Translations under genes and position numbers: made by a program
Notes under the pieces: generated by a model
Database searches by the model: none
What the model was told of the DNA's origin: nothing
The model's input: the letters and a program-made list of their open reading frames with translations, nothing else
Shown: piece after piece, positions 1 to 62,226 of the stretch
How the letters are laid out: every line of letters starts with the position of its first letter
Numbering within the stretch: position 1 is the stretch's first letter
Assembly (NCBI GenBank): GCA_963745835.1
Contig: CAVUZH010000023.1
Location: 14,209 to 78,208 of the forward strand
DNA length: 64,000 bases
DNA from: an uncultured delta proteobacterium
Lineage (GTDB): Bacteria; Desulfobacterota; Binatia; UBA9968
Direction: 5' to 3'

Positions 1-801
1 CAGAGCATCCTCAACCGATATCTGCGCCGGTGGTGGAGCATTCAGCCATTGAGCAAACGCAGGGAGCCATTCGCGCACCGCTAAAGGTTGATCATTCGCA
101 ATCAGATAAATCCCAGGATTGCCTTGCTCTGCTGCTGCAACGGTGGCAATCGCCGCGTCTTCAATGTGTAACCACGACCAGACGCCTTCGCCATTGCCGA
201 CGATCGGGAACTGTTGCTGTCGCACCTGTTGGGCAACATCGCCATCGGGGGTGAACCAGGTCCCGGGTCCATAGAAAAAGCCATAACGCAGGGCAATCCC
301 TTCTATGTTGGGATTTCCTAGTAAGCGATGCTCAAGCTCAGTTACTACGCGGGCATCTGCTGCAACCGCAGGCGAGGCATCAAAGGCTAGAGGCGTTTCT
401 TCATCTGCCAATCCAGGACCGGGAACCGCCCAGAAGGCGATTGACTGCCTCACGTAACGCCGCACACTCGCCGCTTGCGCGGCTGCCAGCACATTGGCGC
501 CTCCTTCTAAACGGAGGCGAGTGTTGAACGCGGCGGCGGCATTCAGTGACTCGCGGGTGTAGGTTCTGGGTAGGGCGGTGAGTTGTTCAATCACAACTTC
601 CGGCTGAGCGCGACTGACAATCGCTTTGACCGCATCGGTATCAAATACATCGGCGATGGCAGGTTCTATGCCTTGTCCCACTAAAGCCTGAGCTTTTTCT
701 GGAGAACGAGTCAGAGCAACTAGAGCGTGTCCTTTGGCAAGCAATTCCGCGATCAGCGGACGACCGATCGCTCCCGTTCCCCCTGCAACAAAAATCTTCA
801 T
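1..801 (-). CDS. NAD-dependent epimerase/dehydratase (atypical SDR), 3' end outside window
   Basis: Manual translation from ATG 801: MKIFVAGGTGAIGRPLI (GxxGxxG) ... LRYGFFYGPG ... WLHIEDAA. AGGAGG RBS upstream. Open to the window edge. Confidence 0.85.
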   Translation of the reverse strand, partial: MKIFVAGGTGAIGRPLIAELLAKGHALVALTRSPEKAQALVGQGIEPAIADVFDTDAVKAIVSRAQPEVVIEQLTALPRTYTRESLNAAAAFNTRLRLEGGANVLAAAQAASVRRYVRQSIAFWAVPGPGLADEETPLAFDASPAVAADARVVTELEHRLLGNPNIEGIALRYGFFYGPGTWFTPDGDVAQQVRQQQFPIVGNGEGVWSWLHIEDAAIATVAAAEQGNPGIYLIANDQPLAVREWLPAFAQWLNAPPPAQISVEDAL

Positions 802-14144: not shown

Positions 14145-14298
14145 CAGGCTGAAAAAACTCCTACGTTTTTTGAAAGATGAATTACGAAAGACGAAAGCTG
14201 ACGATTAAATTTCCGTTTTCAGATTTCCGCTTTCATCCTTGTAATTCGCGCGACTCTGCCTCGGAGTCCTTGACCAGCCTGCGCCAGAGTTTTTCAGC
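14144..14298. mobile_element. MITE-like element with a nested inverted 7-mer array
   Basis: GCAGGCTGAAAAAACTC ... CCAGCCTGC / GAGTTTTTCAGC. Internal NNNGAAA repeats face TTTCNNN repeats (14169-14248). Confidence 0.45.
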
Positions 14299-17342: not shown

Positions 17343-18357
17343 ATGAAACGGTTGATGATGATTGTATGCGCTGCGGCGCTCGGGTGTCTCGGCACTTCGC
17401 TCTCCGTTAACGCGCAAACCCCTAGAAAAGTGAAGATGACGATTCCGGTTGTGGCGCACTCGATGACGCCGGTTTACATCGCCCAAAGCAAGGGCTTCTT
17501 TGCCGAAGAGAAACTGGAGCCGGATATTACTTCCACCGGCGGCGGCGGCCCTGATATCCGGGCGCTGATTGCCGGGGATGTCGAGTTCAGTTTTACCACC
17601 GGCGACAACGTGATCCTGGCGCAGCAAGAGGGCAAGAGACTCTTGATGGTGATGAGCGGGCTCAACAAGGTTTTCATCAACTGGGCGATGCATAAAGAAG
17701 CGGCCAAGGCCAAGGGCGTCACTGAATCGATGCCGCTGGCGGAGAAAATAAAAACGCTTAAAGGTCTGACCATCGGGGTCACGAATCCGGGAGCTTTGAC
17801 CGCGCATCTTGCCGCATTTGTCGTGCGCAAAGCGGGTTATAACCCGCAGCAGGACGTTCAGATTGTTCCCGTCGGCGCCGGGCCCGACTTGGCTTGCCGC
17901 CTTGGAGAATCGCAAGGTCGATGTCGCCTTGACGGCGCCGCCGGTGCCCGAGACGGCGATCAGCCGCGGCTTCGCGATCATGTTCATCAACAACGCCAAA
18001 GGCGAGGACCCGTCGATTCCCGAGTTCCTCATGGAAAATCTGATCGCCCGCCCCGAGACCGTCGCCAAAGATCCCGATCTCGTGCGCCGCATGGTGCGGG
18101 CGCTAACCAGGGCGAACCAGTGGGCGCTTAAAAGCACTCCCGAGCAGGTCGCCGATGCTCTCAAGCCATTCATGGCCAAGACGCCACCCGAACTGTTGCT
18201 GGCAGGGGCTGCTGCGGTGCTGCCGACGTTGAGCCCGGATGGCCGCACCAGCGAGCGAAGCTTTCAAATCACTCAGGAGATCCTCGAACAGGCGGGGCTG
18301 CTAAAGAAGCGCGTGTCCTACTCCGAACTCGTGACCAATGAGTTTCTCGCCAAATGA
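17343..18357 (+). CDS. ABC substrate-binding protein (NitT/TauT), frameshift near 17882
   Basis: ORF 17343 (to ...VGAGP) joins ORF 17809 (PTWLAALENRKVD...) as one SsuA-like protein. Confidence 0.85.
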
Positions 18358-35841: not shown

Positions 35842-38800
35842 ATGGAAGTTTCACGACGCGATTTTCTCCGCCTTTCAGTCGCAGCAGGGACCGGCACGGC
35901 GCTGAGTGGACTCGTCGGCTCGGGCGTCAATCTCGGACCGGCTGTTGCCCGGGCACAGGAGCTGCGGATCAAAAACGCCAAGGTCACTCCCAGCGTCTGC
36001 CCCTATTGCTCAGTCGGATGCGGCACGCTGATTCACACCATCAACGGCAAGATCGTCAACATCGAAGGCGATCCGCGTAGCCCGCACAACGAAGGAACCC
36101 TTTGTCCCAAGGGCGCGGCGATCTTCCAGCTCCACGTCAACCCCAACCGCCCGACTCAGGTTCTCCATCGTGCGGCAGGGGCTGCCGACTGGGAGGTATG
36201 GGATCTTGAGCGCGCGATGAACCGGATCGCCGAGCTGACGAAGAAGACCCGCGACGAGACCTTCATCGAAAAGCTTGCCCAACGGAAAGCTCGTCAACAT
36301 GACGCCCGCCATCTTCGCGTTAGGCGGCGCCACCCTCGAGGTCGAGTTCAATCACATTTGCCAAAAGCTCATGCGCGGCCTCGGCATCGTCGCCATCGAG
36401 AATCAGGCGCGGATATGACACAGCTCTAGCGTCCCCGGTCTGGGGACCCGATTTGGCCGCGGCGCAGCCACCCTCTATCCCGCGGAGCATGGCGGACTCC
36501 GACTGCATCGTCGTCATGGGTTCCAACATGGCGGAGAACCATCCCGTGGCGTTCCGCTGGCCGATGAAGGCCAAGGTCGAGCACGGCGCCAAGATCATCC
36601 ACGTCGATCCGCGTTTCACCCGCACCAGCTCAGTAGCCGATATTTACGCGCCGGTCCGCGCGGGGTCGGACATCGCCTTCCTGGGCGGCGTCATCAAATA
36701 TGTTCTCGACAGCGAGAAGTGGAACAACGACCCATTCTTCAAGACCTTCGTCGTGAACTACACCAATGCCGCGACGATCATCAACGAGGACTTCAAGGAC
36801 ACCGAAGAACTGGACGGAGTATTTTCGGGACTTCTGCAGTCCAAGGGCGGGATCAACGAATGGCCGTTCAACGGTTTTATCAACCAGTACGACGGCGCAA
36901 GCTGGCAGTACGCCGGAACCAAGGCCGGGGAGCAGGGCCGAGCTGCGGCGACCGCGCAGTCGGGCGAGGCTATGGTGTCCTCGGGTTCCGAAGGAACCAA
37001 GTCGCCGGCGACGCCTGAATCCGCGCCCGCGCCGGCAGCGGCTAAAGCCCCGCCGGGCCCGCCGTTTGACTCTTTGGTGGCATCTCTCGTCAAGCCGCCG
37101 CCGCAGAGAGACGAGACGCTCCAGAACCCCCGGTGTGTTTTTCAAATCGTCAAGAAGCATTTCGCGCGCTACACGCCGGAGATGGTGGAGAAGACGACCG
37201 GCTGCCCCAAGGAAACGTTTCTCAAAGTCGCCGAGACCATTCTGGCGAATTCGGGCGCGGACCGGACGACTTCATTCGCCTACGCCGTGGCCTGGACGCA
37301 GCACACCTACGGCGTCCAAATAATCGGCGCCTGCGCGCTGCTTCAGCTTCTGCTGGGGAATATCGGCCGGCCCGGCGCGGGCGTCATGGCGCTCCGCGGC
37401 CACGCCTCGATCCAGGGCTCGACGGACGTCCCTACGCTCTACCACTCGATCCAGGGCTATATGGCGGCGCCAACGGCGCTCAAGAAACACGACACTCTGC
37501 AGGATTACCTCGCGGCTGAGACGCTGCCGACGGGCTATTGGGCGAACATGCCGAAATTCGTCGTTTCGTATCTGAAGTCGATTTACGGAGATGCCGCGAC
37601 CAAGGAGAACCAGTTCGGCTGGGACTGGCACCCGAAGATTCTTGGCGACCATTCACACATGGCCATGTTCGTGGCGATGAACGCCGGCAAGGTGAAAGGA
37701 ATGTTTTGCGTCGGGCAGAATCCCGCCACGTCGGTGAATGCCAAGCTGGAGCGCTCGGGGCTAAGGAAGCTCGAATGGCTGGTCGTGAAAGACAACTGGC
37801 TCACCGAGACAGCCACTTTCTGGAAGAATGCGCCCGAGGTTAAAAAGGGCGAGGTCAAGACCGCGGACATCAAGACCGAAGTCTTTTTCCTCCCCGCCAC
37901 CCAGGTCGGCGAGATCGAAGGCACGTTCACCAACACCCAGCGCCTGCTGCAATTTCATCACAAAGCCGCCGAGGCGCCCGGCGATTGCCGGTCCGATACC
38001 TTGTTCTACTACGATCTCGGCAAACGTTTGAAGAAGCTCTACGCGCAATCGACTGAGCCGCGCGACGAGGGCTTTAAAAATCTTGTCTGGGATTACGAGC
38101 ACGATGACGCAAACGAACGCAAAAAGGGGGAGCCTTCGGCGCTGAAAATTTTAAAGGAGATCAACGGTTTTCAAACCGACGATCCAAGTAAGCACATCGC
38201 AGGCTTCGGCGATTTGAAGGACGATGGTTCGACGACCTGCGCGTCGTGGATCTATTCGGGCGTCTATCCCGCGGTGGGAAAAAATCTCGCCGATAGACGC
38301 ACGCCCGACGCTCCCGGCCAGCCCGGCGCGCAGCTGAATTGGGGTTGGGCGTGGCCGGCCAACCGGCGCATCATGTACAACCGCGCTTCGGCCGATCCCG
38401 ATGGCAAACCCTGGAGCGAAAAGAAAAAATGGGTATGGTGGGATGCGGAGCAGAAAAGATGGGCCGGCTACGATGTGCCGGACTACATCGCGACGAAACC
38501 GCCCACCGACAAAGCCAAGCCGGGCGCGGCGGGTATGGATGCGCTTCCCGGAACCGCTCCTTTCATCATGCGGCCGGACGGCCTGGGTTGGCTCTTCGTG
38601 CCGGCGGGCCTGGTGGACGGCCCGCTGCCGACGCACTACGAGCCGGTCGAGTCGCCGGTCACCAATCCGCTTTACAAGCAGCAGACCAGCCCGGTGTTCA
38701 AATACTGGAAGGATACCGGCAACGAGCTGGCGAAGATGGGCGACCCGAAGTTTCCCTACGTGATGACGACCTATCGTCTGACCGAGCACTATCTGGCGGG

Positions 38801-39140
38801 CGGCATGAGCCGCTGGCTTCCGTGGCTGACCGAACTGCAGCCCGAACTCTTCATCGAGATCAGTCCCGAGCTGGCCCAAGAGAAAGGCATCAAGAATCTC
38901 GACTGGTGCAGAATCTCCAGCCCGCGCACGCAGATCCGCGCCAAGGCTCTGGTCACGCGGCGGATGCGCCCCTTCACCATCGACGGCAAAGTCATCCACC
39001 AAGTCGGCATGCCCTGGCACTGGGGTTATGAAGGCCTGTCCACCGGAGACGTCGTCAACGAGTTGACGTCCCTCATAGCCGATCCGAACGTTTCGATGCA
39101 CGAGGGAAAAGCGTTCGTCTGCAATGTGGAAAAGGCGTAG
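35842..39140 (+). CDS. fdnG: Formate dehydrogenase-N/O alpha subunit, selenocysteine-containing, Tat-exported (apparent frameshifts near 36280 and 36475)
   Basis: Tat motif SRRDFL; CPYCSVGC...LCPKG; ENQARI-TGA(36416-36418)-HSSSVPGLG; ALRGHASIQGSTD; TTYRLTEH. Confidence 0.92.
36431..36447 (+). promoter_or_regulatory. Bacterial SECIS hairpin
   Basis: GTCCCC-GGTCT-GGGGAC starting 12 nt after the in-frame TGA. Confidence 0.85.
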
Positions 39141-39144
39141 AGGA

Positions 39145-39225
39145 TTGGAGTGATGGAGTGTTGGAGAAATGGAGTAATGGTGCCGAAACCTCAATACTCC
39201 AGCACTCCACTACTCCAGTACTTCA
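39145..39225. repeat. Inverted 8-mer tandem array hairpin between fdh alpha and beta
   Basis: TTGGAGTG ATGGAGTG TTGGAGAA ATGGAGTA ATGG / CAATACTC CAGCACTC CACTACTC CAGTACTT CA. Confidence 0.85.
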
Positions 39226-39249
39226 GGCTGGGTTAGGCTAGGAGGAATC

Positions 39250-40050: not shown

Positions 40051-40955
40051 ATGGCATTCCCTCGAGCACCTACTTTACCGCTGCCGCCCGATTGGGGTTG
40101 GCTGATCGTTTTTTATTTCTTTTTCGGCGGTCTGGCCGGCGGCTGTTACTTTCTCGCCGTGTTGATCGATTTTTTCGGCAGGCCCGAAGATCGCCCGCTG
40201 GCGCGGCTCGGCTATCTCATCTCGTTTCCCTGTCTCATCATAAGCGGCATCCTCTTGACCGTTGATCTACACCGGCCGGAACGCTTCTGGCACATGCTGA
40301 TCGAGTCCAACACCTTCCAGCCGATGTTCAAGTACTGGTCGCCGATGTCGCTGGGCTCTTGGGCGCTTACTGATATTCGGGTTATTTTCATTTCTATCTT
40401 TTCTCGGCGCGCTGGCTGATAGCGGCCGTGTCACATGGTCCGGAGCGCGCAGGCTACGCCCGCCGGGAACAATCGGCGGGATCATTTCGATCATCGGCGG
40501 GCTCTTTGCTTTTTATGTTGCCGGTTACACCGGAGTTCTTCTCGCGGTGACCAACCGTCCTATTTGGTCCGATTCCCCACTTTTGGGGATGCTGTTTGTC
40601 GTCTCGGCGGCGTCGATCTCGGCGGCATTGATGATCTTGCTTGCCGAGCGCAACCGCTGGACCATGCCCGGCATCGCGGATTTGCACCGGATGGACGTTT
40701 GGGTCCTCGCGCTGGAACTCATCGTCTTGATCGCGTTCTTGGTCTCGCTCGGGCCGGTTTTCCGCGCCTGGTTCAGTGCCTGGGGCCTGGTGCTGTTGCT
40801 CGGCGTTGTTGTCTTAGGAATGCTCGTGCCGCTATCGCTATCGTGGCGCAGGGATTGGCTCGGAGATCGCAATATGACCACCGGCGGCCGCGTTGGTGCT
40901 GGTCGGCGGCTTTTTGCTCCGGCTAGTGATCGTCTTTTCATCCGAAGGAATTTGA
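40047..40955 (+). CDS. NrfD/PsrC-type membrane anchor, frameshifted
   Basis: WGWLIVFYFFFGGLAGG, DLHRPERFWHM, SPMSLGSW, YTGVLL..TNRPIW. Confidence 0.82.
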
Positions 40956-40957
40956 CG

Positions 40958-41192
40958 ATGAACGGCGTTTTGCGGATTGTTGTAACCGGATGTCCTGCTA
41001 ATGCTCGGTTGCACAAGCCCGGAGACAACCCGCACCCGCGGCGGCGGTCCAGGCGCCGATGTCGGCAACAGAAAAGAAACCGTGCGCATGCACGAAGGTG
41101 CTCGGCCCTTTGAGAACACGCCGAAGCTTATCCCCAGCAAACATCCGCCCTTAGAGCCCGCCAGCCAGGCGGATGAGATCAGCCGCAGATGA
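40958..41192 (+). CDS. Small putative lipoprotein in the fdh operon
   Basis: MNGVLRIVV... joining MLGCTSPETTRTRGGGPGADVGN (lipobox LGC) after one shift. Confidence 0.55.
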
Positions 41193-42078: not shown

Positions 42079-42488
42079 CGTTGTCCGCCGACGATCTCAA
42101 ATCGGTTCGCCCCGCGGAGGTTTGCGGGGCTTTGCTCGCCGCGCTCGAAGCGGCCGAGGGACGCAGGCGAAGCCGCAAGCGCGACCAAACGCCGGACGCT
42201 ATCGGGTTAGCGATCAAGCGGGAGCTGCTCGGGCGCGCCGTCCAAGAGGATCCAGATCCTGAAGCATTCGAAGAGTGGTTGCTTCAATGCGGTCTGACGT
42301 GCGCGCCGGAATCGGCCGGCGCCACAATGGCCATGGCGCGCGCTATTTTTGAAGAATGGCGCCTTACTCATTCAATGAATGATTTTAAATCCTGGCTCGA
42401 ACAGGGCGCGCCATCCGATGATGCCAATGAAGGCTCTTCGTCCCGTCCAAGAAACCAACAACACGAATCCGCAAAAGGACGTCCCTGA
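42063..42488 (+). CDS. Hypothetical protein in the fdh operon
   Basis: LAALEAAEGRRRSRKRDQTPDAIGLAIKRELL...GAPSDD; overlaps the fdhE end. Confidence 0.65.
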   Translation: MVGSITLSADDLKSVRPAEVCGALLAALEAAEGRRRSRKRDQTPDAIGLAIKRELLGRAVQEDPDPEAFEEWLLQCGLTCAPESAGATMAMARAIFEEWRLTHSMNDFKSWLEQGAPSDDANEGSSSRPRNQQHESAKGRP

Positions 42489-42973
42489 TTGCCAAAAACC
42501 GCACCTCCAGACCTGCGCGAGAAAATATCGAGCGTCTTTACCCGCGTCGAGGATGTGACCTACGTCGGCCTCGGAGTGTTGCTGGCGGTCAGCGCGTTAT
42601 TTCTTCTGCTTGCGGCGGCTTGGACTTTAGTCGAAGGTCTTTCTTTCTCCGGTCTTGCCAAAGATCTCACCGTCGAGGTGCGTCGATCAGATTCTTCTGG
42701 TGCTGATGATCATCGAGATCCTTGTCTACCGTTCAGGTATCGTTTCGCGAGCATGTATTGACACCCGAGCCATTCTTAGTCGTCGGCTTGATCGCCGCCA
42801 TCCGGCGCATCCTCATCATCACCGCCGAATTTTCCAATCCGTCTGAAATCCTCGAAGCCGCTTTCCGTAACGCTATGTTCGAACTGGGTTTGTTGACCGT
42901 CTTGATATTTTCCCTGGTCTTTTCTCTGCACTTTCTCAAAAAGAATCGGGCGGCTACTGTCGAACGCGAGTGA
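42489..42973 (+). CDS. PsiE-like membrane protein (frameshifted)
   Basis: DQILLVLMIIEIL, EPFLVVGLIAAIRRILI. Confidence 0.75.
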
Positions 42974-43354: not shown

Positions 43355-44254
43355 GTGTCTACGGCAAATCTTGGTTTTGTCGGACTCGGGGTGATGGGAA
43401 GCCGCATGGTAAAACGGCTGCTCGATGCCGGCCACTCGGTAACGGGATATAACCGAACCCGCGCCAAAGCCCAATGGCTTCTCGACACCGGGATGAAGTG
43501 GGCCGAAACTCCGCGCGCCGTCGCAGACTCCGCTGACGTCGTTTTCTCAATGGTCTCCGATACTGCCGCACTGCAAGCGATCACCGCAGGAACTCATGGC
43601 ATCGTCGCCGGACTTGCCGCCGGCAAAATCTACATCGATATGAGCACGGTAAGCCCTGCTGCCAGCCGTGACATCGCCCAGCAGGTCGCTGCTAAAGGAG
43701 CGCATATGCTCGATGCGCCGGTTTCGGGCAGCGTCATTACCTTGGAAGAGGGCAAGCTATCGTTCATGGTCGGCGGCGATCGCGTCGCCTTTGAACAGGC
43801 GCAATCGATTCTCGAAGCGATCGGACCAAAGGTCACTTACGTCGGCGGCAATGGATTGGCAGTCTCCATGAAAATCGCCACTAATCTCAGCCTGGCCGTG
43901 CAAATGCTTGCCTTTAGCGAAGGAGTGCTGCTGGCCGAGAAGAGCGGCATTACACGGGAGACCGCCGTGGAAGTTCTGCTCAACAGCGTTATCGCATCGC
44001 CGATGGTGAAATACCGCGGGCCGTTTGTCTTGAACATGCCCGAAGAAGCCTGGTTCGATGTGGACATGATGCAGAAGGATCTACTCCTCGCTTTAGAGAT
44101 GGGTCTTAAGCTGGATGTGCCGCTGCCGACCACAGCGATTACCAATCAAATGCTCACGAGCGCGCGCGCCGCAGGGCTCGCCGAAAAAGATTTCGCGATA
44201 TTGTTTGACGTGCTGTCGAAGATGGCAGGCGTGAAGAGTGGAGGAATGGAGTAA
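43355..44254 (+). CDS. NAD(P)-dependent beta-hydroxyacid dehydrogenase (3-hydroxyisobutyrate DH family)
   Basis: GFVGLGVMG, DMSTVSP, DAPVSGS, catalytic K in MKIATN, KDL. Confidence 0.9.
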   Translation: MSTANLGFVGLGVMGSRMVKRLLDAGHSVTGYNRTRAKAQWLLDTGMKWAETPRAVADSADVVFSMVSDTAALQAITAGTHGIVAGLAAGKIYIDMSTVSPAASRDIAQQVAAKGAHMLDAPVSGSVITLEEGKLSFMVGGDRVAFEQAQSILEAIGPKVTYVGGNGLAVSMKIATNLSLAVQMLAFSEGVLLAEKSGITRETAVEVLLNSVIASPMVKYRGPFVLNMPEEAWFDVDMMQKDLLLALEMGLKLDVPLPTTAITNQMLTSARAAGLAEKDFAILFDVLSKMAGVKSGGME

Positions 44255-44300
44255 CGGGTGACGGGAGATCTTTGCATCACTCCAACACTCCATTACTCCA
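44238..44300. repeat. Inverted 8-mer tandem array (TGGAGT family)
   Basis: gtggagga atggagta acgggtga / catcactc caacactc cattactc ca; overlaps the upstream stop codon. Confidence 0.75.
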
Positions 44301-44321: not shown

Positions 44322-45330
44322 ATGGCGCGATCCAAAAAAGACAAAGTAAAGCCAGCAAAAAGCGCCGCGGCTCACGATGAACGCTGGATTCATTTCTATC
44401 GGCAAATGGTGAAGATCCGTCGCTTCGAGGAAGAGGTCAATCAACTCTATCTCGGCGCCAAGATGCCCGGCCTTGCGCATTTGTATATCGGCCAGGAGGC
44501 GATCGCCGTGGGCGTTTGTGAAGCGCTGCGGCGCGACGACTATATAACCAGCACGCACCGTGGTCATGGCCACTGCTTAGCCAAGGGCGCCGCTGTGGAC
44601 AAGATGTTTGCCGAACTGCTCGGCAAAGAGGCCGGATACTGCCGCGGCAAAGGTGGCTCCATGCACATTGCCGATCAAGAGACCGGCAACCTGGGCGCCA
44701 ACGCAATCGTCGGCGGCAGCGCCGGCGATGGCCACCGGCGCGGGCCTATCGATAAAGATGCGCGGCACGGATCAAGTGGCGATCTGTTTTTTCGGCGACG
44801 GCGCTCTAGGACAAGGACTGCTTTACGAGGCGATGAACATGGCATCGCTGTGGAAACTGCCGGTCATCTACGTTTGCGAGAACAATCAATACAACGAATA
44901 TACCAATTATCGAGAGACCACCGCCGGCGAAGTATCGGCGCGCGCCGAAGCTTTTGGCATTCACAGCCAAACCATCGACGGTCAGGACGTGCGCATGGTG
45001 CACGCCACTAGCCTCGAACTAGTCAAGCGCGCCCGGCGCGGTGACGGGCCGGCATTCTTACACTGCAACACTTACCGTTTCCACGGTCACCATGTCGGTG
45101 ACATCGATCGCTCCTACTACCGATCTAAGAGGGAAGAAGAAGATTGGAAGACCCAGCGCGATCCGGTAATTCTCCTCGGGGACTGGCTACAGAAAAACAA
45201 ATTGGCCGATAGTAACCTCTTACAAACAGTCGATAACGAAGTTTCGGAAGAGATCATCAGCGCGGTGAACTTCGCTTTGGCGGCTCCTTTTCCCGCGGCC
45301 GATGAGGTAGACCAGCATGTCTACGCGTGA
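44322..45330 (+). CDS. TPP-dependent dehydrogenase E1 alpha (AcoA/PdhA-like), frameshift near 44727
   Basis: [26 protein letters not shown] motif GDGA...[15 protein letters not shown]. Confidence 0.9.
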
Positions 45331-45338
45331 GAAAGGAT

Positions 45339-45771
45339 AGGCAACAGGCAATGGGCAACAGGCATTAGGAGAACGTTCGAATAAAATTCTCAGCTACAAA
45401 GATCTTCTCGTTTGGCAGAAAAGCATGCGGCTTGTGGAAACCGGGTATCGTCTGAGCGTTCAGCTACCTGCAGCCGAGTAATGGGGTCTCATTTCGCAAA
45501 TGCGTCGTGCGGCCGTTTCAATTCCGTCAAATATCGCCGAAGGCTATGGCAGGCAAGCAACGGGAGAGTACCACCAGCATCTTTCCATCGGCCGTGGTTC
45601 GTTGCTGGAGTTAGAAACTCAGGTTCTTTTATGTCGAAGACTCGGCTATCTCGAGGGAAGCCGTGCCGAAGTCTTGCTGCGAGAAATTGAGCAAATAAGC
45701 AAAGTGCTAGGTTCTTTGATCGCTAAACTGCGCTGAACGAGCTATTGCCAAATGCCTGTTGTCTCTTGCCT
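45339..45771. repeat. Inverted 7-mer arrays flanking the four-helix-bundle pseudogene
   Basis: Left AGGCAAC AGGCAAT GGGCAAC AGGCATT (45339-45366); right ATTGCCA AATGCCT GTTGTCT CTTGCCT (45744-45771). Confidence 0.85.
45371..45736 (+). pseudogene. Four-helix-bundle protein (23S rRNA IVP/S23-like family) with in-frame TAA
   Basis: SYKDLLVWQKSM...LPAAE*WGLISQMRRAAVSIPSNIAEGYGR...GRGSLLELETQ. TAA at 45479-45481; no clear in-frame ATG upstream. Confidence 0.85.
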
Positions 45772-46755
45772 ATGAAATCCCGCGAGATCACCTTCAGCCA
45801 AGCTATCAACGAGGCGCTATCCGAGGAGATGCGCCGCGACCCGACTGTATTTATCATCGGTGAAGATGTCGCTGAGGCTGGCACACCGTTCAAAGTATTA
45901 TCGGGACTGGTCGGGGAATTCGGCACCCAGCGCGTGATCGACTCGCCGATCTCCGAAGCAGGCATCAGCGGTATCGGCGTTGGCGCCGCTATGACTGGAA
46001 TGCGGCCTGTGGTGGATATCATGTTCGGCGATTTCCTCACCTTGACGATGGATCAGCTGGTCAATCAGGCGGCGAAAATTCACTATATGTCCGGCGGCAA
46101 GCTTAAAGTGCCAATGGTGCTGCGAACGACTTTAGGCGCAACCCGCCGTTCAGCGGCGCAGCACAGCCAGAGCCTTCACGCCTGGGTGAGTCATGTTCCC
46201 GGATTGAAAGTCGTCGTGCCGTCGACGCCCTACGATGCCAAGGGTCTGCTCAAAAGCGCCATCCGCGATGACAATCCGGTCGTGTTCTTCGAGGACAAAA
46301 TGATGTACCAGCTGAAGGGGCCGGTCCCGGCCGAGGAATACACGATCCCGCTGGGAGTGGCTGATATCAAGCGCGCCGGCAACGATATCACGCTGGTGGC
46401 AACCAGCAGCATGGTGCACGTCGCCCTGGCGGCAGCAGCAGTATTGGCAAATGATGATATCAGCGCCGAAGTTATCGATGTCAGGACGACCGCGCCGCTG
46501 GACACAGACACACTTGTTCAATCGGCCAAAAAAACCAGCCGCGCCATCGTCATCGACGAAGGTTATGAGAACTACGGCGTCACGGCAGAAATTGCTTCGG
46601 TGATCGCCGACGGCGCCTTCTACTATCTCGACGCGCCCGTCAAGCGCATGGGCGCCATGAATGTGCCGGTGCCGTTTTCGCCGGTGCTTGAAGATCAAAC
46701 GGTGCCGACGCCGGAAAACGTTGCGAAATTGGCGCGAGTGTTGTGCGACAAATAA
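45772..46755 (+). CDS. TPP-dependent dehydrogenase E1 beta (AcoB/PdhB-like)
   Basis: GEDV, DSPISEAG, DQLVNQAAK, AAQHSQS, DAKGLL. Confidence 0.92.
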   Translation: MKSREITFSQAINEALSEEMRRDPTVFIIGEDVAEAGTPFKVLSGLVGEFGTQRVIDSPISEAGISGIGVGAAMTGMRPVVDIMFGDFLTLTMDQLVNQAAKIHYMSGGKLKVPMVLRTTLGATRRSAAQHSQSLHAWVSHVPGLKVVVPSTPYDAKGLLKSAIRDDNPVVFFEDKMMYQLKGPVPAEEYTIPLGVADIKRAGNDITLVATSSMVHVALAAAAVLANDDISAEVIDVRTTAPLDTDTLVQSAKKTSRAIVIDEGYENYGVTAEIASVIADGAFYYLDAPVKRMGAMNVPVPFSPVLEDQTVPTPENVAKLARVLCDK

Positions 46756-46799
46756 TGGCCGAGTTTGGTATAGGCGACAGCAATGGTTACGTGGCAACG

Positions 46800-46898
46800 G
46801 TTCCAGCAGTTCCAAACGTTCCAGCGGTTCCACTCGTTCAAGGGCACGGATCGCTGTTGACATTTGAAACCATTGGAACGACTGGCACGATTGGAACG
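46800..46898. repeat. Inverted 9-mer tandem array hairpin
   Basis: GTTCCAGCA GTTCCAAAC GTTCCAGCG GTTCCACTC GTTCAA / TTGAAACCA TTGGAACGA CTGGCACGA TTGGAAC. Confidence 0.85.
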
Positions 46899-46918
46899 CT
46901 AAGGTTTGGAGATTACTC

Positions 46919-48235
46919 ATGGGGTTGAAAACCTTCGGCTTAATGGCCGTGGACTGGGAGGAGCGGGTCAATATCGAGCGGCTCCGGCAGGAGCGGCTGG
47001 CGCGGGTGAAAAATGCGCTGAAGAAATCCGAAATCGGCGCGCTGCTCTGTTTCGATATGAACAACATTCGCTATATCACCGCGACACACATCGGCACCTG
47101 GGCGATGGACAAGCTGGTGCGCTTCTCACTGTTGCCGCAGGATGACGAGCCGATTTTATGGGACTTCGGCTCCGCGGCTCGGCACCATCAAATTTACTGC
47201 CCTTGGCTCGGCGAACGGTCGCGCGCCGGCATCTCGACCTTGCGCGGCGCAACTAATCCGGGCTCCGGATTGGCCGAAGACGTGGCGAAGAAAATCCGTC
47301 TCGAGCTGGAGAAGCGCCAGCTCTTGAATGAGCCGGTCGGAGTCGATGTTATCGAGATCCCGGTGCTGTTTGCCTTGCAGTCGCAGGGCATCAAGGTTGT
47401 CGATGGCCAGCAACTCATGCACGAAGTAAGAAAGATCAAAACTCAAGATGAAATAACCTTGCTCAATACCGCAACGATGATGGTGGATGCGGCTTACGAC
47501 GAGCTTTATCGATTCATGAAGCCGGGAGTAAAGGAAAACGAATGCGTCGGAGTGGTGAGCAAGGTACTTTACGATCTCGGCTCCGAGCATGTTGAAGGGG
47601 TCAACGCGATCTCGGGAGAACGCTGCAGTCCGCATCCGCACGTCTACACCGATCGCGTGCTCCGGCCTGGTGATCCGGCCTTTTTCGACATTTTGCACAG
47701 CTTCAATGGTTACCGCACCTGCTACTATCGAACCTTCGCCGTAGGCAGCGCGTCCCCGGCAATGGTCGACGCCTACAAGCGCTGCCGCGACTACATGGAC
47801 GCGGCGATCAGCATCGTCAAGCCGGGAATCACCACCGCAGATGTCGTCAAGCTCTGGCCGAAGGCAGAGGAATTCGGCTTTGCCAACGAAGAGGCAGCCT
47901 TTGCGCTGCAGTACGGCCACGGGGTTGGCTTATCGATTTGGGAAAAACCAATTTTCAGCCGGCTCGTTTCATTGGACCATCCTGAGATCATCGAAGAAGG
48001 CATGGTGTTCGCTCTGGAAACCTATTGGCCGGCAAGCGATGGCTGGTCGGCAGCGCGTCTCGAAGAAGAAGTGGTGGTGACCAAAGACGGCTGCGAAATC
48101 ATCACTCGATTTCCATCGGAGAAGCTGCTGGTTGCCGGCACGCACTACTTCACTGCCGGCGGAGAGTTGCCGACCACGCGGTACACGCAATCGGCATTGA
48201 ATAACCCGGGCGCGTTGGAACGGGTCAAGGGCTAA
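46919..48235 (+). CDS. M24 (Xaa-Pro peptidase/creatinase fold) family enzyme
   Basis: NNIRY, RKIKTQDEI, FFD...GYRTCYYRT, YGHGVGL, ALET, RLEE. Confidence 0.85.
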   Translation: MGLKTFGLMAVDWEERVNIERLRQERLARVKNALKKSEIGALLCFDMNNIRYITATHIGTWAMDKLVRFSLLPQDDEPILWDFGSAARHHQIYCPWLGERSRAGISTLRGATNPGSGLAEDVAKKIRLELEKRQLLNEPVGVDVIEIPVLFALQSQGIKVVDGQQLMHEVRKIKTQDEITLLNTATMMVDAAYDELYRFMKPGVKENECVGVVSKVLYDLGSEHVEGVNAISGERCSPHPHVYTDRVLRPGDPAFFDILHSFNGYRTCYYRTFAVGSASPAMVDAYKRCRDYMDAAISIVKPGITTADVVKLWPKAEEFGFANEEAAFALQYGHGVGLSIWEKPIFSRLVSLDHPEIIEEGMVFALETYWPASDGWSAARLEEEVVVTKDGCEIITRFPSEKLLVAGTHYFTAGGELPTTRYTQSALNNPGALERVKG

Positions 48236-48359
48236 CAGGCTGCTGAAAAAGACTCATCTGCTTCGTTGCGCTTGACCGACTCGCTTCAACGTACTGAAAC
48301 GTACGGCTCAGCTCTTCGGACTTCGCGCGCCTGGCATCTGAGATCTTTTGAGCAGCCTG
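48236..48359. mobile_element. MITE (124 bp) with terminal IRs and candidate TAA target duplication
   Basis: CAGGCTGCTGAAAA ... TTTTGAGCAGCCTG, flanked by TAA on both sides. Confidence 0.7.
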
Positions 48360-48399
48360 TAAACGTACTTTTTAGGGATACCTGCGAGACTAGAGTCAC

Positions 48400-48470
48400 T
48401 TTGAGTCTCGGATTTGAGATCTGAGTAGTTACGATCGGAACCGGTGGAACAATTGGAACTACTGGAACGG
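48400..48470. repeat. Single-arm 7-mer and 9-mer arrays
   Basis: ttgagt ctcggat ttgagat ctgagt, then tcggaaccg gtggaacaa ttggaacta ctggaacgg. Confidence 0.6.
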
Positions 48471-48501
48471 TCTTTCTTTCCGGACTGTTGAACTAAATTT
48501 T

Positions 48502-49701
48502 ATGCCGACGAATGTCATCATGCCCGCCCTCGGCGTAGCCCAAGAAAAAGGCACGCTGATCAACTGGCTCAAGTCCGAAGGTCAGACAGTGAGCAAAGGC
48601 GAGCCGCTGATGGAGGTCGAGACGGACAAGGCAACCGTCGAGATCGAAGCGGTGGCTTCGGGGATTCTAGCTAATGTGACCGCTAGCGCTGGTGACGAAG
48701 TGCCGGTGGGTCACACTATCGCGCTGATCTTGGCGCCGGGCGAAACTGTACCGGAACCAGCGACTGCGTCATCATCCTCCTCAGTAAAAGAAATTTCTCC
48801 ACAAGCATCTGCCGAGTCTAAGATCGAGGATAGAACTGAAACTCCAAACCCTACGCCGCGAATTCCAGGCTCACGCATTTTAGCCTCACCGGCAGCCAGG
48901 AGAATCGCGCGCGAGGAAGGGATCGATCTCGGAGCCTTGAACGGTAGCGGTCCGGAGGGCAGCGTGCTGATCGCGGATGTCCGGCGGGCCAAAGAAAAAC
49001 CAACGCTTGAACCGGAAATTGCGCAGCGGGTCAGCCGGCTGGTACCGCTCAGCCCGATGCGCCGGATTGTCGGCGAGCGCATGACCCAAAGCAAACAGCG
49101 CGCGCCGCACTTCTATATCAGCATGGATATCGACATGACGGCCATTGTCGGGATGAGAAATAGATGGAAGCAGCGCGGAGACACAACACTTCCATCAATC
49201 AACGATTTTATCTTGAGCGCCTGCGCCAATACCTTGAAAGATTTCCCTGTCGTGAATGCACGATTTACCCACGACGGAATCGAGTATTTGCCAGAGATCA
49301 ACATCGGCATGGCGGTGGCTCTCGAAGAAGGTCTCGTGGTACCGGTCATTCGTAATGCCGACCGGCTGAGCCTGGGCGACTTGGCGCAACAGAGCCGGCA
49401 ACTGTCTGATAAAGCACAACACAAGAAATTATTGCCCTTCGATTACGAAGGCGGAACTTTCACGGTCTCCAACCTCGGCATGCTCGGCGTCGACAATTTC
49501 GTCGCGATCATCAATCCGCCGCAATGCGCTATTCTCGCGGTGGGCCGCGTTGCGCCGCGTGCCGTCGCCGATGACGTCGGCATCGCGGTGCGATCGATGA
49601 TGACCGCCACATTGTCCGCCGATCATCGCATCGTCGATGGAGCGATCGCCGCGCGCTTCCTGGCGGATTTCAAGCGACGCATGGAAAACCCTGATCGTTG
49701 A
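48502..49701 (+). CDS. Dihydrolipoamide acyltransferase E2
   Basis: Lipoyl motif VETDKA; PSBD ASPAARRIA; GGTFTVSNLG; DHRIVDG. Confidence 0.92.
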   Translation: MPTNVIMPALGVAQEKGTLINWLKSEGQTVSKGEPLMEVETDKATVEIEAVASGILANVTASAGDEVPVGHTIALILAPGETVPEPATASSSSSVKEISPQASAESKIEDRTETPNPTPRIPGSRILASPAARRIAREEGIDLGALNGSGPEGSVLIADVRRAKEKPTLEPEIAQRVSRLVPLSPMRRIVGERMTQSKQRAPHFYISMDIDMTAIVGMRNRWKQRGDTTLPSINDFILSACANTLKDFPVVNARFTHDGIEYLPEINIGMAVALEEGLVVPVIRNADRLSLGDLAQQSRQLSDKAQHKKLLPFDYEGGTFTVSNLGMLGVDNFVAIINPPQCAILAVGRVAPRAVADDVGIAVRSMMTATLSADHRIVDGAIAARFLADFKRRMENPDR

Positions 49702-60957: not shown

Positions 60958-62070
60958 ATGAAAGCTATAGCCGTTACGCCGAGGAAAAAAACCGTCGAAA
61001 TTATTAATCAAGCCGAACCGCAGATATTCTCCCCCACGGATGTCAAGCTGCGCATGCTGGAGGCCGGGGTCTGCGGCACTGACAGAGAAATCTGCGCCTT
61101 CGAATACGGCACGCCGCCCGCCGGCTGCGAGCAACTCGTCATCGGCCACGAATCTCTCGGCGAGGTAATTGAAACAGGTCCGAAAGTCACCCGCGTGAAA
61201 GCAGGAGACCTCGTCGTCCCAATGGTCCGCCGGCCGTGCCCGCACGACGATTGCGTGGCCTGCCGCGCCGATCGTCAGGATTTTTGTTTCACCGGAGAAT
61301 TTCAAGAACGGGGTATTAAAGAAAAGCACGGGTTCATGGCGCAGTTCGTTGTTGACGACGAAAAGTACATGAATCCCGTTCCCAGGGAAATGCGTGACGT
61401 TGCCGTTTTGGTAGAGCCGCTGACAATTGCTGAAAAGGGGCTGACTCAAGTATGGCAAATGCAACAGCGCTTGCCTTGGGGCTGCCCGGTCACACCGGCA
61501 AAAGCAGCGGCTCATTGCCACCGGGCTGTTGTCCTGGGCGCGGGACCGGTCGGATTGCTTGGGGCTATGGCCTTGATCAACTACGATTTTGACACGTATG
61601 TTTATTCGCGACAGCCCGCTCCGAATCCGAAGTCTCAACTACTCGAATCGATCGGCGCGCACTATATTTCGTCTGAGAACATCGTTCCCGAAATGCTTCC
61701 CGAACAGATCGGCAACGTAGATTTGATCTACGAAGCGACGGGAGCTTCGAGCCTGGCCTTCGAAACGATGAAGTACCTGGGCACCAACGGCATCTTTATT
61801 TTCACAGGCGTGCCCGGCAGAAAACGGCCCATTCAAGTCGATACCGACCTCATCATGCGCAATCTGGTTCTGAAAAACCAGGTCGTCTTCGGCACGGTCA
61901 ATGCCGGGCGCGACTCCTTCGAAAACTCTATCCGCGATCTCGGCACTTTTGCCAAGCGTTGGCCCGAGGCGGTGCAGTCGCTGATCACCGGGCGCTTCCC
62001 GATGGAGGCTTACGGCGATCTTCTTCTCGGCCGCTCCGGAGGGATCAAGAATGTAATTAAGCTCAATTGA
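60958..62070 (+). CDS. Zn-dependent glucose 1-dehydrogenase (MDR family)
   Basis: GVCGTDREI, GHESLG, VRRPC, ERGI, VEPLTIAEK, GAGPVG, GTVNA. Confidence 0.85.
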   Translation: MKAIAVTPRKKTVEIINQAEPQIFSPTDVKLRMLEAGVCGTDREICAFEYGTPPAGCEQLVIGHESLGEVIETGPKVTRVKAGDLVVPMVRRPCPHDDCVACRADRQDFCFTGEFQERGIKEKHGFMAQFVVDDEKYMNPVPREMRDVAVLVEPLTIAEKGLTQVWQMQQRLPWGCPVTPAKAAAHCHRAVVLGAGPVGLLGAMALINYDFDTYVYSRQPAPNPKSQLLESIGAHYISSENIVPEMLPEQIGNVDLIYEATGASSLAFETMKYLGTNGIFIFTGVPGRKRPIQVDTDLIMRNLVLKNQVVFGTVNAGRDSFENSIRDLGTFAKRWPEAVQSLITGRFPMEAYGDLLLGRSGGIKNVIKLN

Positions 62071-62085
62071 GCATGTAACGCGGTC

Positions 62086-62116
62086 GTTCAAGGTTCCACA
62101 GTTCAACAGTTCAAAG
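62086..62116. repeat. GTTCAA/GTTCCA 7-8-mer tandem array
   Basis: gttcaag gttccaca gttcaaca gttcaaag, just after the glucose dehydrogenase stop. Confidence 0.6.
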
Positions 62117-62226
62117 TCAGATTTGACGTCGGTCAAAAATCGATAACGGATTTTGAATCATCAGAATAGTTCAATCACTCAATTAACTTCTGCATCTTTC
62201 GATGCCCCTCGGATATCCAATCGCGT

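Follow-up and report, generated by a model that had tools for sequence, protein, structure and literature searches.

How does an operon tolerate a further gene, enclosed in inverted repeats, between two of its members? This question is raised by a stretch of 64,000 nucleotides from an uncultured delta proteobacterium of the Binatia (contig CAVUZH010000023.1; hereafter the window, whose numbering is used throughout), in which an additional open reading frame (ORF) lies between the genes for the E1-alpha and E1-beta components of a dehydrogenase. With regard to its identity and anatomy, we are highly confident that the insert represents a decayed copy of a promoter-less cassette of wide distribution, in which a gene of the IVP family is bracketed by inverted arrays of 7- to 8-nt units. 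That the stem formed by these arrays might neutralise the insert at the level of the transcript is a serious proposal that stops a little short of being probable; the explanation as a whole, which joins the anatomy of the cassette, its inheritance and the action of the stem in the transcript, is in our view slightly favored on balance.

The cassette at the E1-alpha/E1-beta junction

The array on the left of the insert consists of the heptamers AGGCAAC, AGGCAAT, GGGCAAC and AGGCATT (45339-45366), detected by Tandem Repeats Finder with a period of 7 and 3.7 copies, and that on the right of TATTGCC, AAATGCC, TGTTGTC and TCTTGCC (45743-45770). A search for inverted repeats delimits arms of 32 nt (45337-45368 and 45742-45773) that are 75% complementary and 373 nt apart. 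At the RNA level, the arm helix comprises ~27 bp (8+12+4+3 pairs, three of them G-U) with a duplex energy of -39.7 kcal/mol, so that the four heptamers, the reverse-complement array and the ~28-bp stem described in the initial annotation of this locus stand essentially as given. Its placement of the right boundary at 45771, immediately before the ATG of E1-beta, has to be corrected: complementarity continues to 45773, and the last 8 nt of the right arm, TTGCCTAT (45766-45773), pair with ATAGGCAA (45337-45344), thereby covering the A and the U of this start codon. When the right arm is shuffled, the duplex reaches -17.4 +/- 3.6 kcal/mol and none of 1000 shuffles is as good as the real arm; likewise, none of 1710 genomic 39-mers matches the energy of the real arm duplex. 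Within a context of 601 nt, most arm bases have a pair probability of 0.8-1.0, and the minimum free energy fold of 45325-45790, the segment singled out initially for folding, pairs the two arms. A search of the window against Rfam returned no family at the gathering score, and no tRNA genes were found in it.

The frame between the arms (45371-45733, stops read as X) matches PF05635 (23S_rRNA_IVP; E 6.4e-34, 116.8 bits versus a cut-off of 33.8) and TIGR02436 ('four helix bundle protein'; E 8.4e-33, 112.9 bits versus a cut-off of 24), which bears out the initial assignment of a four-helix-bundle ORF to the interval between the E1-alpha stop (45330) and E1-beta. A profile built from its close relatives matches the structures 2gsc (XCC0516, E 4.5e-34) and 2rld. 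The AlphaFold2 (AF2) model has four helices at residues 27-48, 58-78, 85-108 and 114-138 with a predicted local distance difference test (pLDDT) score of 85, and a Foldseek search with this model finds 2gsc best (2gsc_B, E 9e-7, root-mean-square deviation 1.2, template-modelling scores 0.75/0.87), followed by 2rld and then by Avd chains of diversity-generating retroelements (DGRs). Both the model and the structural comparison assign to the window IVP a four-helix-bundle fold like that of XCC0516 and BT_0352. This fold is shared with Avd (8ub7_B, E 7.5e-3, and 4dwl_D in Foldseek; NCBIfam Avd at E 2e-4). A reading of the locus as a DGR was rejected, with the Avd model NF033474 scoring 21.6 bits versus a cut-off of 80 and no reverse transcriptase among the 65 window ORFs by Pfam.

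In the relatives of the window protein, the gene begins upstream of the left array. The equivalent of ATG 45317, which overlaps the last four codons of E1-alpha (ATGtctacgcgTGA), serves as the start in at least eight relatives that are 73-93% identical, and their ORFs run through the left array. The nearest of them (P0001, P0002, P0003, P0005, P0007, P0009) are 138-139 amino acids long with the N-terminus MSTREKGQATGNGQ and its variants MSTRE, MSMRE and MSTRD. Because these variants are those that synonymous changes in an overlapping ...HVYA-stop of E1-alpha would produce, the relatives probably sit at the same E1-alpha junction; among the matches listed, the nearest ones stem from metagenome-assembled genomes (MAGs) labelled 'uncultured delta proteobacterium', together with a 'Candidatus Binatus' protein. 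The usual start of the family, M-[NTDE]-K-I-L-S-Y-K-D-L, reads R-S-N-K-I-L in this clade. Judged from the alignment, the canonical start has been lost in the window clade and apparently replaced by the ATG that overlaps the E1-alpha stop, from which translation would pass through the left array; the array-encoded extension (residues 1-22) is disordered in the AF2 model, with pLDDT below 50.

The 139-codon frame of the window is itself interrupted twice, by TAG 45338-45340 and TAA 45479-45481, and hence is not intact. Both triplets are Gln codons in the relatives, which identifies them as C-to-T nonsense changes. The first description of the ORF as having a TAA and no clear start was right about the TAA at 45479; it missed the TAG, and the start at ATG 45317 is recovered from the relatives. 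GAAAGGA, previously noted as a purine-rich stretch just outside the left arm, lies within the ORF of the relatives, where it encodes E-K-G. Recoding of TAA/TAG as Gln was rejected in view of the TAA codons that terminate E1-beta and the HIBADH-like gene of the same operon. Truncation or frameshifting is likewise seen in the relatives P0004, P0050 and P0074, and a tblastn search of the window yielded no second IVP copy.

The architecture of the element is that of an intervening sequence (IVS), as was recognised from the start. The 23S rRNA IVS of Coxiella burnetii is 444/428 nt long, has a 28-bp stem formed by terminal inverted repeats, carries 3-4 tandem GACAGAT heptamers of strain-variable copy number before the S23p start, is cut by RNase III at the first repeat and contains a decaying ORF; the authors of its description regard the RNA as more important than the protein (PMC4990558). 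As in the ORF-bearing 23S rRNA IVS of C. burnetii and Leptospira, the same protein family occupies the loop of the window element, which measures 437 nt from arm to arm (versus 428/444), has a stem of ~27 bp (versus 28), contains a decaying ORF and places tandem heptamers in its 5' arm just before this ORF (PMC4990558). In contrast to the 23S rRNA IVS, the host of the window element is not helix 25 or 45 of 23S rRNA but an operon mRNA between protein genes. The rRNA-borne form is already known. In the open full-text literature, subscription journals and supplements being outside reach, we found no paper that describes the mRNA-embedded form, with inverted short-period arrays on both sides of an IVP gene located elsewhere than in rRNA.

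Arms, orientation and inheritance of IVP cassettes

A word-index search scored at least 7987 IVP relatives among the 8000 candidates listed. For a survey of genomic loci, candidates were taken by tblastn over at least 604 stretches with the peptide pattern NIAEGYGR or GSLLELETQ; the 80 loci studied are the best of 575 confirmed relatives, from one contig scan of genomes with the alignment of relatives (A1). They derive from Bacteroidota, Planctomycetota, Pseudomonadota, Cyanobacteriota, Acidobacteriota, Nitrospirota, Bacillota and one member of the candidate phyla radiation, among others. One locus (L047) lacks a flank, and the arm statistics consequently refer to 79 loci. Flanks were counted as complementary at a score of at least 27, and as strict inverted arrays when the same period of 6-10 nt was present in both arms.

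By these measures, IVP flanks are complementary in 66 of the 79 loci, and 57 of them possess strict inverted arrays, with a period of 7 in 46 and of 8 in 11 cases. Shifting the geometry by 2-3 kb leaves 1 of 248 control positions above the score threshold and none with strict arrays; the flanks of other ORFs yield 8 and 3 positives, respectively, out of 713. Two of these three strict positives turned out to be second IVP genes (L021:1164-1523 and L023:784-1191), and the third is a 173-amino-acid ORF with a weak SpoIIAA-like match and AGGCAAT arrays on either side (L002, 2544-3065). When the upstream flank of a locus is combined with the downstream flank of another, 3 of 79 combinations reach the score and 3 of 79 the strict definition. 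Other four-helix-bundle genes thus do carry such arms (57-66 of 79), and a foreign right arm fits in only 3 of 79 loci, as expected had the two arms changed together; the corresponding refuting conditions named in the initial annotation therefore do not refute it. The ORF is broken in 5 of the 79 loci, through an in-frame stop in four (L015, L046, L058, L060) and through truncation plus a frameshift in one (L006), with the arrays kept. In L049 and L073, the variant units of the right arm follow one another in a swapped order that departs from an exact inverted repeat, so that the helix is possible in more than one register, one unit apart.

The cassettes occupy short spacers between two co-directional genes, always in the orientation of these genes. 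Neighbouring genes were called by Pfam support, and the calls of gene starts are crude. A same-strand upstream ORF with a Pfam family ends at the left arm in 59 of 74 loci tested, and one follows the right arm in 58 of 71; a check of the opposite strand at the remaining loci added three divergent upstream and five convergent downstream neighbours. Where both neighbours could be assigned, 46 cassettes are co-directional with them, four have a convergent downstream and two a divergent upstream neighbour, and not one lies antisense to the two neighbours. Operon partners flank many of these junctions: SdhA|SdhB (seven), LeuA|LeuB (three), LeuA|LeuC (two), NuoC|NuoD (three, and L031 by reading) and GroES|GroEL (two), as well as Cas1|Cas2, GyrB|GyrA, HisA|HisF, CheR|CheB, TrkH|TrkA, type II secretion E|F and RpiB|Rpe. 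Measured on the 38 co-directional loci whose arms are clear, the median distance from the upstream stop to the left arm is 1.5 nt (30 within +/-15), that from the right arm to the downstream start is 12 nt (33 within -12..30), and the cassettes span 408-600 nt. The left arm contains more G than C in 64 of the 66 clear-arm loci, and the reverse is never found, with as many as 46 different units in use; some of the G-rich units, such as TTTAGGG in L076, are telomere-like. Signs of rRNA genes are present in none of the 80 loci, 46 of which lie between Pfam-supported genes and 34 of which have no rRNA match, a result to be read against the rarity of rRNA operons on MAG contigs. Two matches to Rfam RF01687 (Acido-Lenti-1 RNA) lie downstream of the cassette in a KSB1 MAG (L044, 4026-4071 and 4599-4644).

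Arms and ORF are inherited jointly, at times at a new junction, and the units drift while the arms stay complementary. The IVP tree has 73 rows, seven loci having been dropped for a stop in the estimated frame (two of them were later found to be intact), and its rows group largely by host phylum. Mapped onto it, the junction labels require 8 changes, the lowest number possible, as compared with 15.8 in shuffles, none of 200 of which is as low. A nuoC|nuoD copy (L018) is sister, with starred support, to comM|folD copies, and L057 and L071 are nested among sdh copies; these placements indicate that, within a lineage, the cassette is now and then established at a new junction. Similarity of the arm units tracks IVP relatedness (Mantel test, 0/500), and where two IVPs are less than 45% identical, the left arm of one locus is compatible with the right arm of the other in 5% of the pairs, a proportion that stands at 41% for identities of at least 65%. 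The cassette hence behaves as one heritable and occasionally relocating unit, in keeping with the mobility proposed for it at the outset. At the same time, many IVP pairs of 60-70% identity have entirely different units, for instance GGGACTT (L026) versus GGCAATT (L078), each matched by its own partner arm, and such pairs imply a concerted change of both arms.

Tolerance of the insert and competing explanations

We suggest that the answer to the opening question may lie in the operon transcript. The two arms would pair there in a helix of ~27 bp that loops out ~375 nt and brings the E1-alpha stop beside the E1-beta start, and this helix would make the insertion tolerable. Two routes can be envisaged. 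RNase III might cut the helix, by analogy with the architecturally identical 23S rRNA IVS; cleavage has been shown experimentally for the rRNA IVS only. By the other route, ribosomes that end E1-alpha, or that translate the IVP frame across the left arm, would melt the base of the helix, free the E1-beta start and thus preserve translational coupling. The strict co-orientation, the G/C polarity of the arms and the stop/start geometry together favour a constraint that operates on the transcript. Intercistronic RNase III sites occur in the early mRNA of phage T7, and hairpins bridge a split ribosome-binding site at phage T4 genes 25 and 38. Like the window stem, these are intercistronic helices that are either cut or serve to unite translation signals; in contrast to it, they are short and have no gene in the loop.

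Several observations weigh against this proposal. The surveyed loci were not drawn at random from the IVP family. The arm pairing is exceptional, but the 466-nt fold in its entirety is not (z -1.1, equalled by 11 of 100 shuffles). Formal covariation support for the helix is thin: three sdhA|sdhB cassettes recover it, with one compensatory AU/UA double change in 20 pairs. Mismatches in the arms are G:U in 46 and A:C in 57 instances (p 0.32), and without an excess of G:U, selection on a sense RNA helix is not visible, so that complementarity could be maintained at the DNA level. As stated initially, E1-beta has no obvious Shine-Dalgarno sequence of its own, GGAG, GAGG and AGGA being absent from -20 to -4. 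The further idea that it borrows one is weakened: such a core precedes 15 of the 41 crudely called gene starts in the window and is missing from the other 26, E1-beta is therefore not special among them and its start requires no particular explanation. At the other loci, a core follows the right arm in only 13 of 38. Finally, the broken IVP ORF, a frameshifted E1-alpha gene and at least three other split genes may mean that this operon is decaying or dead, or that the sequence is error-prone.

The most serious rival, which we nevertheless regard as rather unlikely, is an element that acts as DNA: the arrays would be terminal inverted repeats, or single-stranded hairpins or cruciforms, that an enzyme of the host or of the element employs in moving or copying the cassette, and the RNA stem would be a by-product. 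The missing bias of G:U over A:C and the abundance of hairpins without a gene keep such a mechanism alive, and the arms do accompany the ORF to new junctions. Over 565 kb of IVP loci, short-loop inverted repeats number 68, of which 30 are array-type hairpins, as compared with 0 of 7 after block shuffling, and at least four such hairpins lie in the window; those of the IVP loci often use the unit of the local IVP arms (L002, L013, L026, L049), and positions 888-5123 of L002 alone hold four gene-less ones, three with the IVP-arm unit. Moreover, a GxxExxY gene (TIGR04256; PF13366/PDDEXK_3, PD-(D/E)XK fold) in L049 (6272-6661) is bracketed in the same manner by inverted arrays with a period of ~10 nt, and this family appears to be a second one of small proteins that uses the same type of bracket. 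Against a DNA-level element stands the content of the cassette: of the features of a transposon or miniature inverted-repeat transposable element, it has the terminal inverted repeats, its sole ORF is the IVP, and it encodes no transposase, recombinase or reverse transcriptase. No target-site duplication is seen either (the longest word shared by the flanks averages 3.9 nt versus 3.7 in controls, and words of at least 6 nt occur in 6 of 66 loci versus 4.9%), a finding that does not support classical transposition and leaves room for duplications of 2-4 nt. Co-orientation (46 versus 0) and G/C polarity (64 of 66) would also be unexpected for an element with symmetric terminal repeats. A comparable layout is found in REP/RAYT systems (repetitive extragenic palindromes and their associated tyrosine transposases), in which a gene is flanked by inverted hairpin-forming repeats that are also dispersed, without the ORF, in intergenic regions. 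Unlike these, IVP has no transposase fold, its tandem-array units are locus-specific, and the solo hairpins of the window use other units.

It is improbable, in our estimation, that the arms are a property of the host site, as native intercistronic punctuation for transcript processing or stability, into whose loop an IVP gene simply happened to insert. What speaks for it are the IVP-less array hairpins of the window, two of which belong to the same operon (Table 1) and whose units (TGGAGNNN, GAAAGNN) are unlike those of the window IVP arms, together with the 70-75 convergent inverted pairs of GGGAATC arrays in Xanthomonas, reported with no mention of IVP (PMC4692102). Like the cassettes, these Xanthomonas heptamers are intergenic, often occur as inverted pairs and lie near the upstream ORF between co-directional genes, with groES among the associated genes; in contrast to the present pairs, which bracket one gene family, they were discussed in connection with G-quadruplexes, S23 and four-helix proteins also going unmentioned (PMC4692102). 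The arm unit follows the IVP phylogeny and not the identity of the junction, the same unit recurs in close IVPs from separate junctions (GGCAG type, for instance, in L018, L005 and L038), and the ORFs of the relatives contain the left array, all of which is difficult to reconcile with native host-site repeats.

We attach an equally low probability to the arrays being repeated binding sites for an IVP oligomer, either in autoregulation or in a ribonucleoprotein, with complementarity as a secondary trait. Arms of ~4-5 units would suit a pentameric relative (2gsc has five chains; 'homopentamer' in PMC4990558), the structural relative Avd forms part of a complex of RNA and protein that includes the DGR reverse transcriptase (8ub7), and the arrays have strand polarity. 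Yet 46 different units in 66 loci, facing a highly conserved protein surface motif, argue against sequence-specific binding, and cassettes with a broken ORF (window, L015, L058, L060) keep their arms. Chance, or a replication-slippage by-product unrelated to the gene, can be dismissed with near certainty: among the long simple repeats of bacteria, heptamers are the most common type (PMC4679880, PMC4692102), but the shuffle, shifted-geometry, other-ORF and block-shuffle controls refute an association by chance, and slippage may still be the way in which arrays grow.

Neighbouring genes, gene-less hairpins and the wider IVP family

The features of the window are compiled in Table 1. The gene for E1-alpha, a component of a thiamine pyrophosphate (TPP)-dependent dehydrogenase, ends with TGA 45328-45330 and is split over two frames (44322 to ~44728 and ~44724 to 45330), to which positions 1-104 and 104-298 of the PF00676 profile correspond; the frameshift, near 44723-44730 in a GC-rich stretch, is either genuine or a sequencing error. 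For E1-beta, the ATG at 45772 is backed by the Transket_pyr domain, which begins at residue 5. Further genes of the window apparently split across frames code for a formate dehydrogenase-like alpha subunit (35842-39137), an NrfD-like protein (40051-41110) and an NMT1-like binding protein (17343-18354).

Table 1. Positions of the cassette, its neighbours and other array-bracketed features in the window.
Feature	Position	Strand	Basis or description
Left arm	45337..45369	+	four G-rich heptamers (45339-45366) plus AGG of AGGAGAA
Right arm	45742..45773	+	four C-rich heptamers complementary to left arm
IVP reading frame as in relatives, 139 codons	45317..45736	+	TGA 45734-45736; relatives' alignment A1, PF05635
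GAGG, Shine-Dalgarno-like core 9 nt before ATG 45317	45304..45307	+	read from sequence; putative role
AGGAGAA then TCG AAT, where other IVP genes start	45368..45382	+	alignment A1
E1-alpha (TPP-dependent dehydrogenase E1 component)	44322..45330	+	PF00676 profile, ORFs and sequence
E1-beta	45772..46755	+	PF02779 and PF02780
Array hairpin without ORF, HIBADH-like/E1-alpha junction	44236..44300	+	8-nt arrays TGGAGNNN / NNNCTCCA; z -2.8, 2/200 shuffles equal
Array hairpin without gene, after formate dehydrogenase-like gene	39140-39226		8-nt units; z -5.9, 0/200 shuffles equal
Array hairpin without gene, same operon	46795-46906		9-nt units; z -2.4
Array hairpin without gene, OCD-like/amidohydrolase junction	14172-14250		7-nt units; z -2.5
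Second bracketed insert, same operon	46795..48476	+	9-nt arrays GTTCCANNN (46795-46846) and NNNTGGAAC (48425-48476)

The second bracketed insert of the operon has the appearance of a further cargo, of larger size, within a bracket of this type. Between E1-beta and E2, an M24 peptidase gene (46919-48235) is enclosed by GTTCCA and TGGAAC arrays, whose duplex of -55.1 kcal/mol is equalled by none of 1000 shuffles, the best of 1551 genomic 52-mers reaching -42.0. A nearer TGGAAC array (46861-46906) makes a local hairpin with the GTTCCA array, and the far array pairs with it even better. Right after the stop of the peptidase gene, a strong hairpin that is not of the array type occupies 48236-48365 (-53.3 kcal/mol, z -4.9, 0/200 shuffles equal); no significant fold was obtained for 48425-48505 alone (z -0.85), 62068-62200 or 42480-42600. 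We also weighed whether the TGGAG and TGGAAC arrays could act as a CsrA-type GGA sponge; this idea was abandoned, the IVP arms having no GGA and half of each hairpin being the complement.

Looking beyond the window, we tentatively propose a more general view, to which we would not yet give even odds in its favor. IVP cassettes might be pan-bacterial, orientation-specific 'intervening sequences of messenger RNA', each a small gene between cistrons enclosed by a self-pairing array stem that evolves rapidly and would hide the insert from the expression of the operon. The 23S rRNA IVS would be a rare special case of them, and the intergenic heptamer arrays and inverted pairs of Xanthomonas, of cyanobacteria, in the latter the simple-sequence heptamers termed short tandemly repeated repetitive (STRR) sequences, and of other bacteria would be derivatives without an ORF; other cargo may be possible, as exemplified by GxxExxY in L049 and the M24 peptidase of the window.

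The cassette links three literatures that, as far as they could be searched, do not cite one another: those on rRNA intervening sequences, on heptamer simple repeats and on IVP genes in cas loci, of which 18 are reported, e.g., between cmr3 and cmr2 (PMC3936711). For annotation, it carries two warnings: the extensions at the N-terminus of IVP proteins result from translation of the repeat arrays, and such arrays may mimic other repeat loci. The stem offers a reason why insertions of this kind would be tolerated in essential operons, and the fixed anatomy, with its inverted arrays, co-orientation and stop/start placement, turns PF05635/TIGR02436, a large family without an assigned function, into a testable system.

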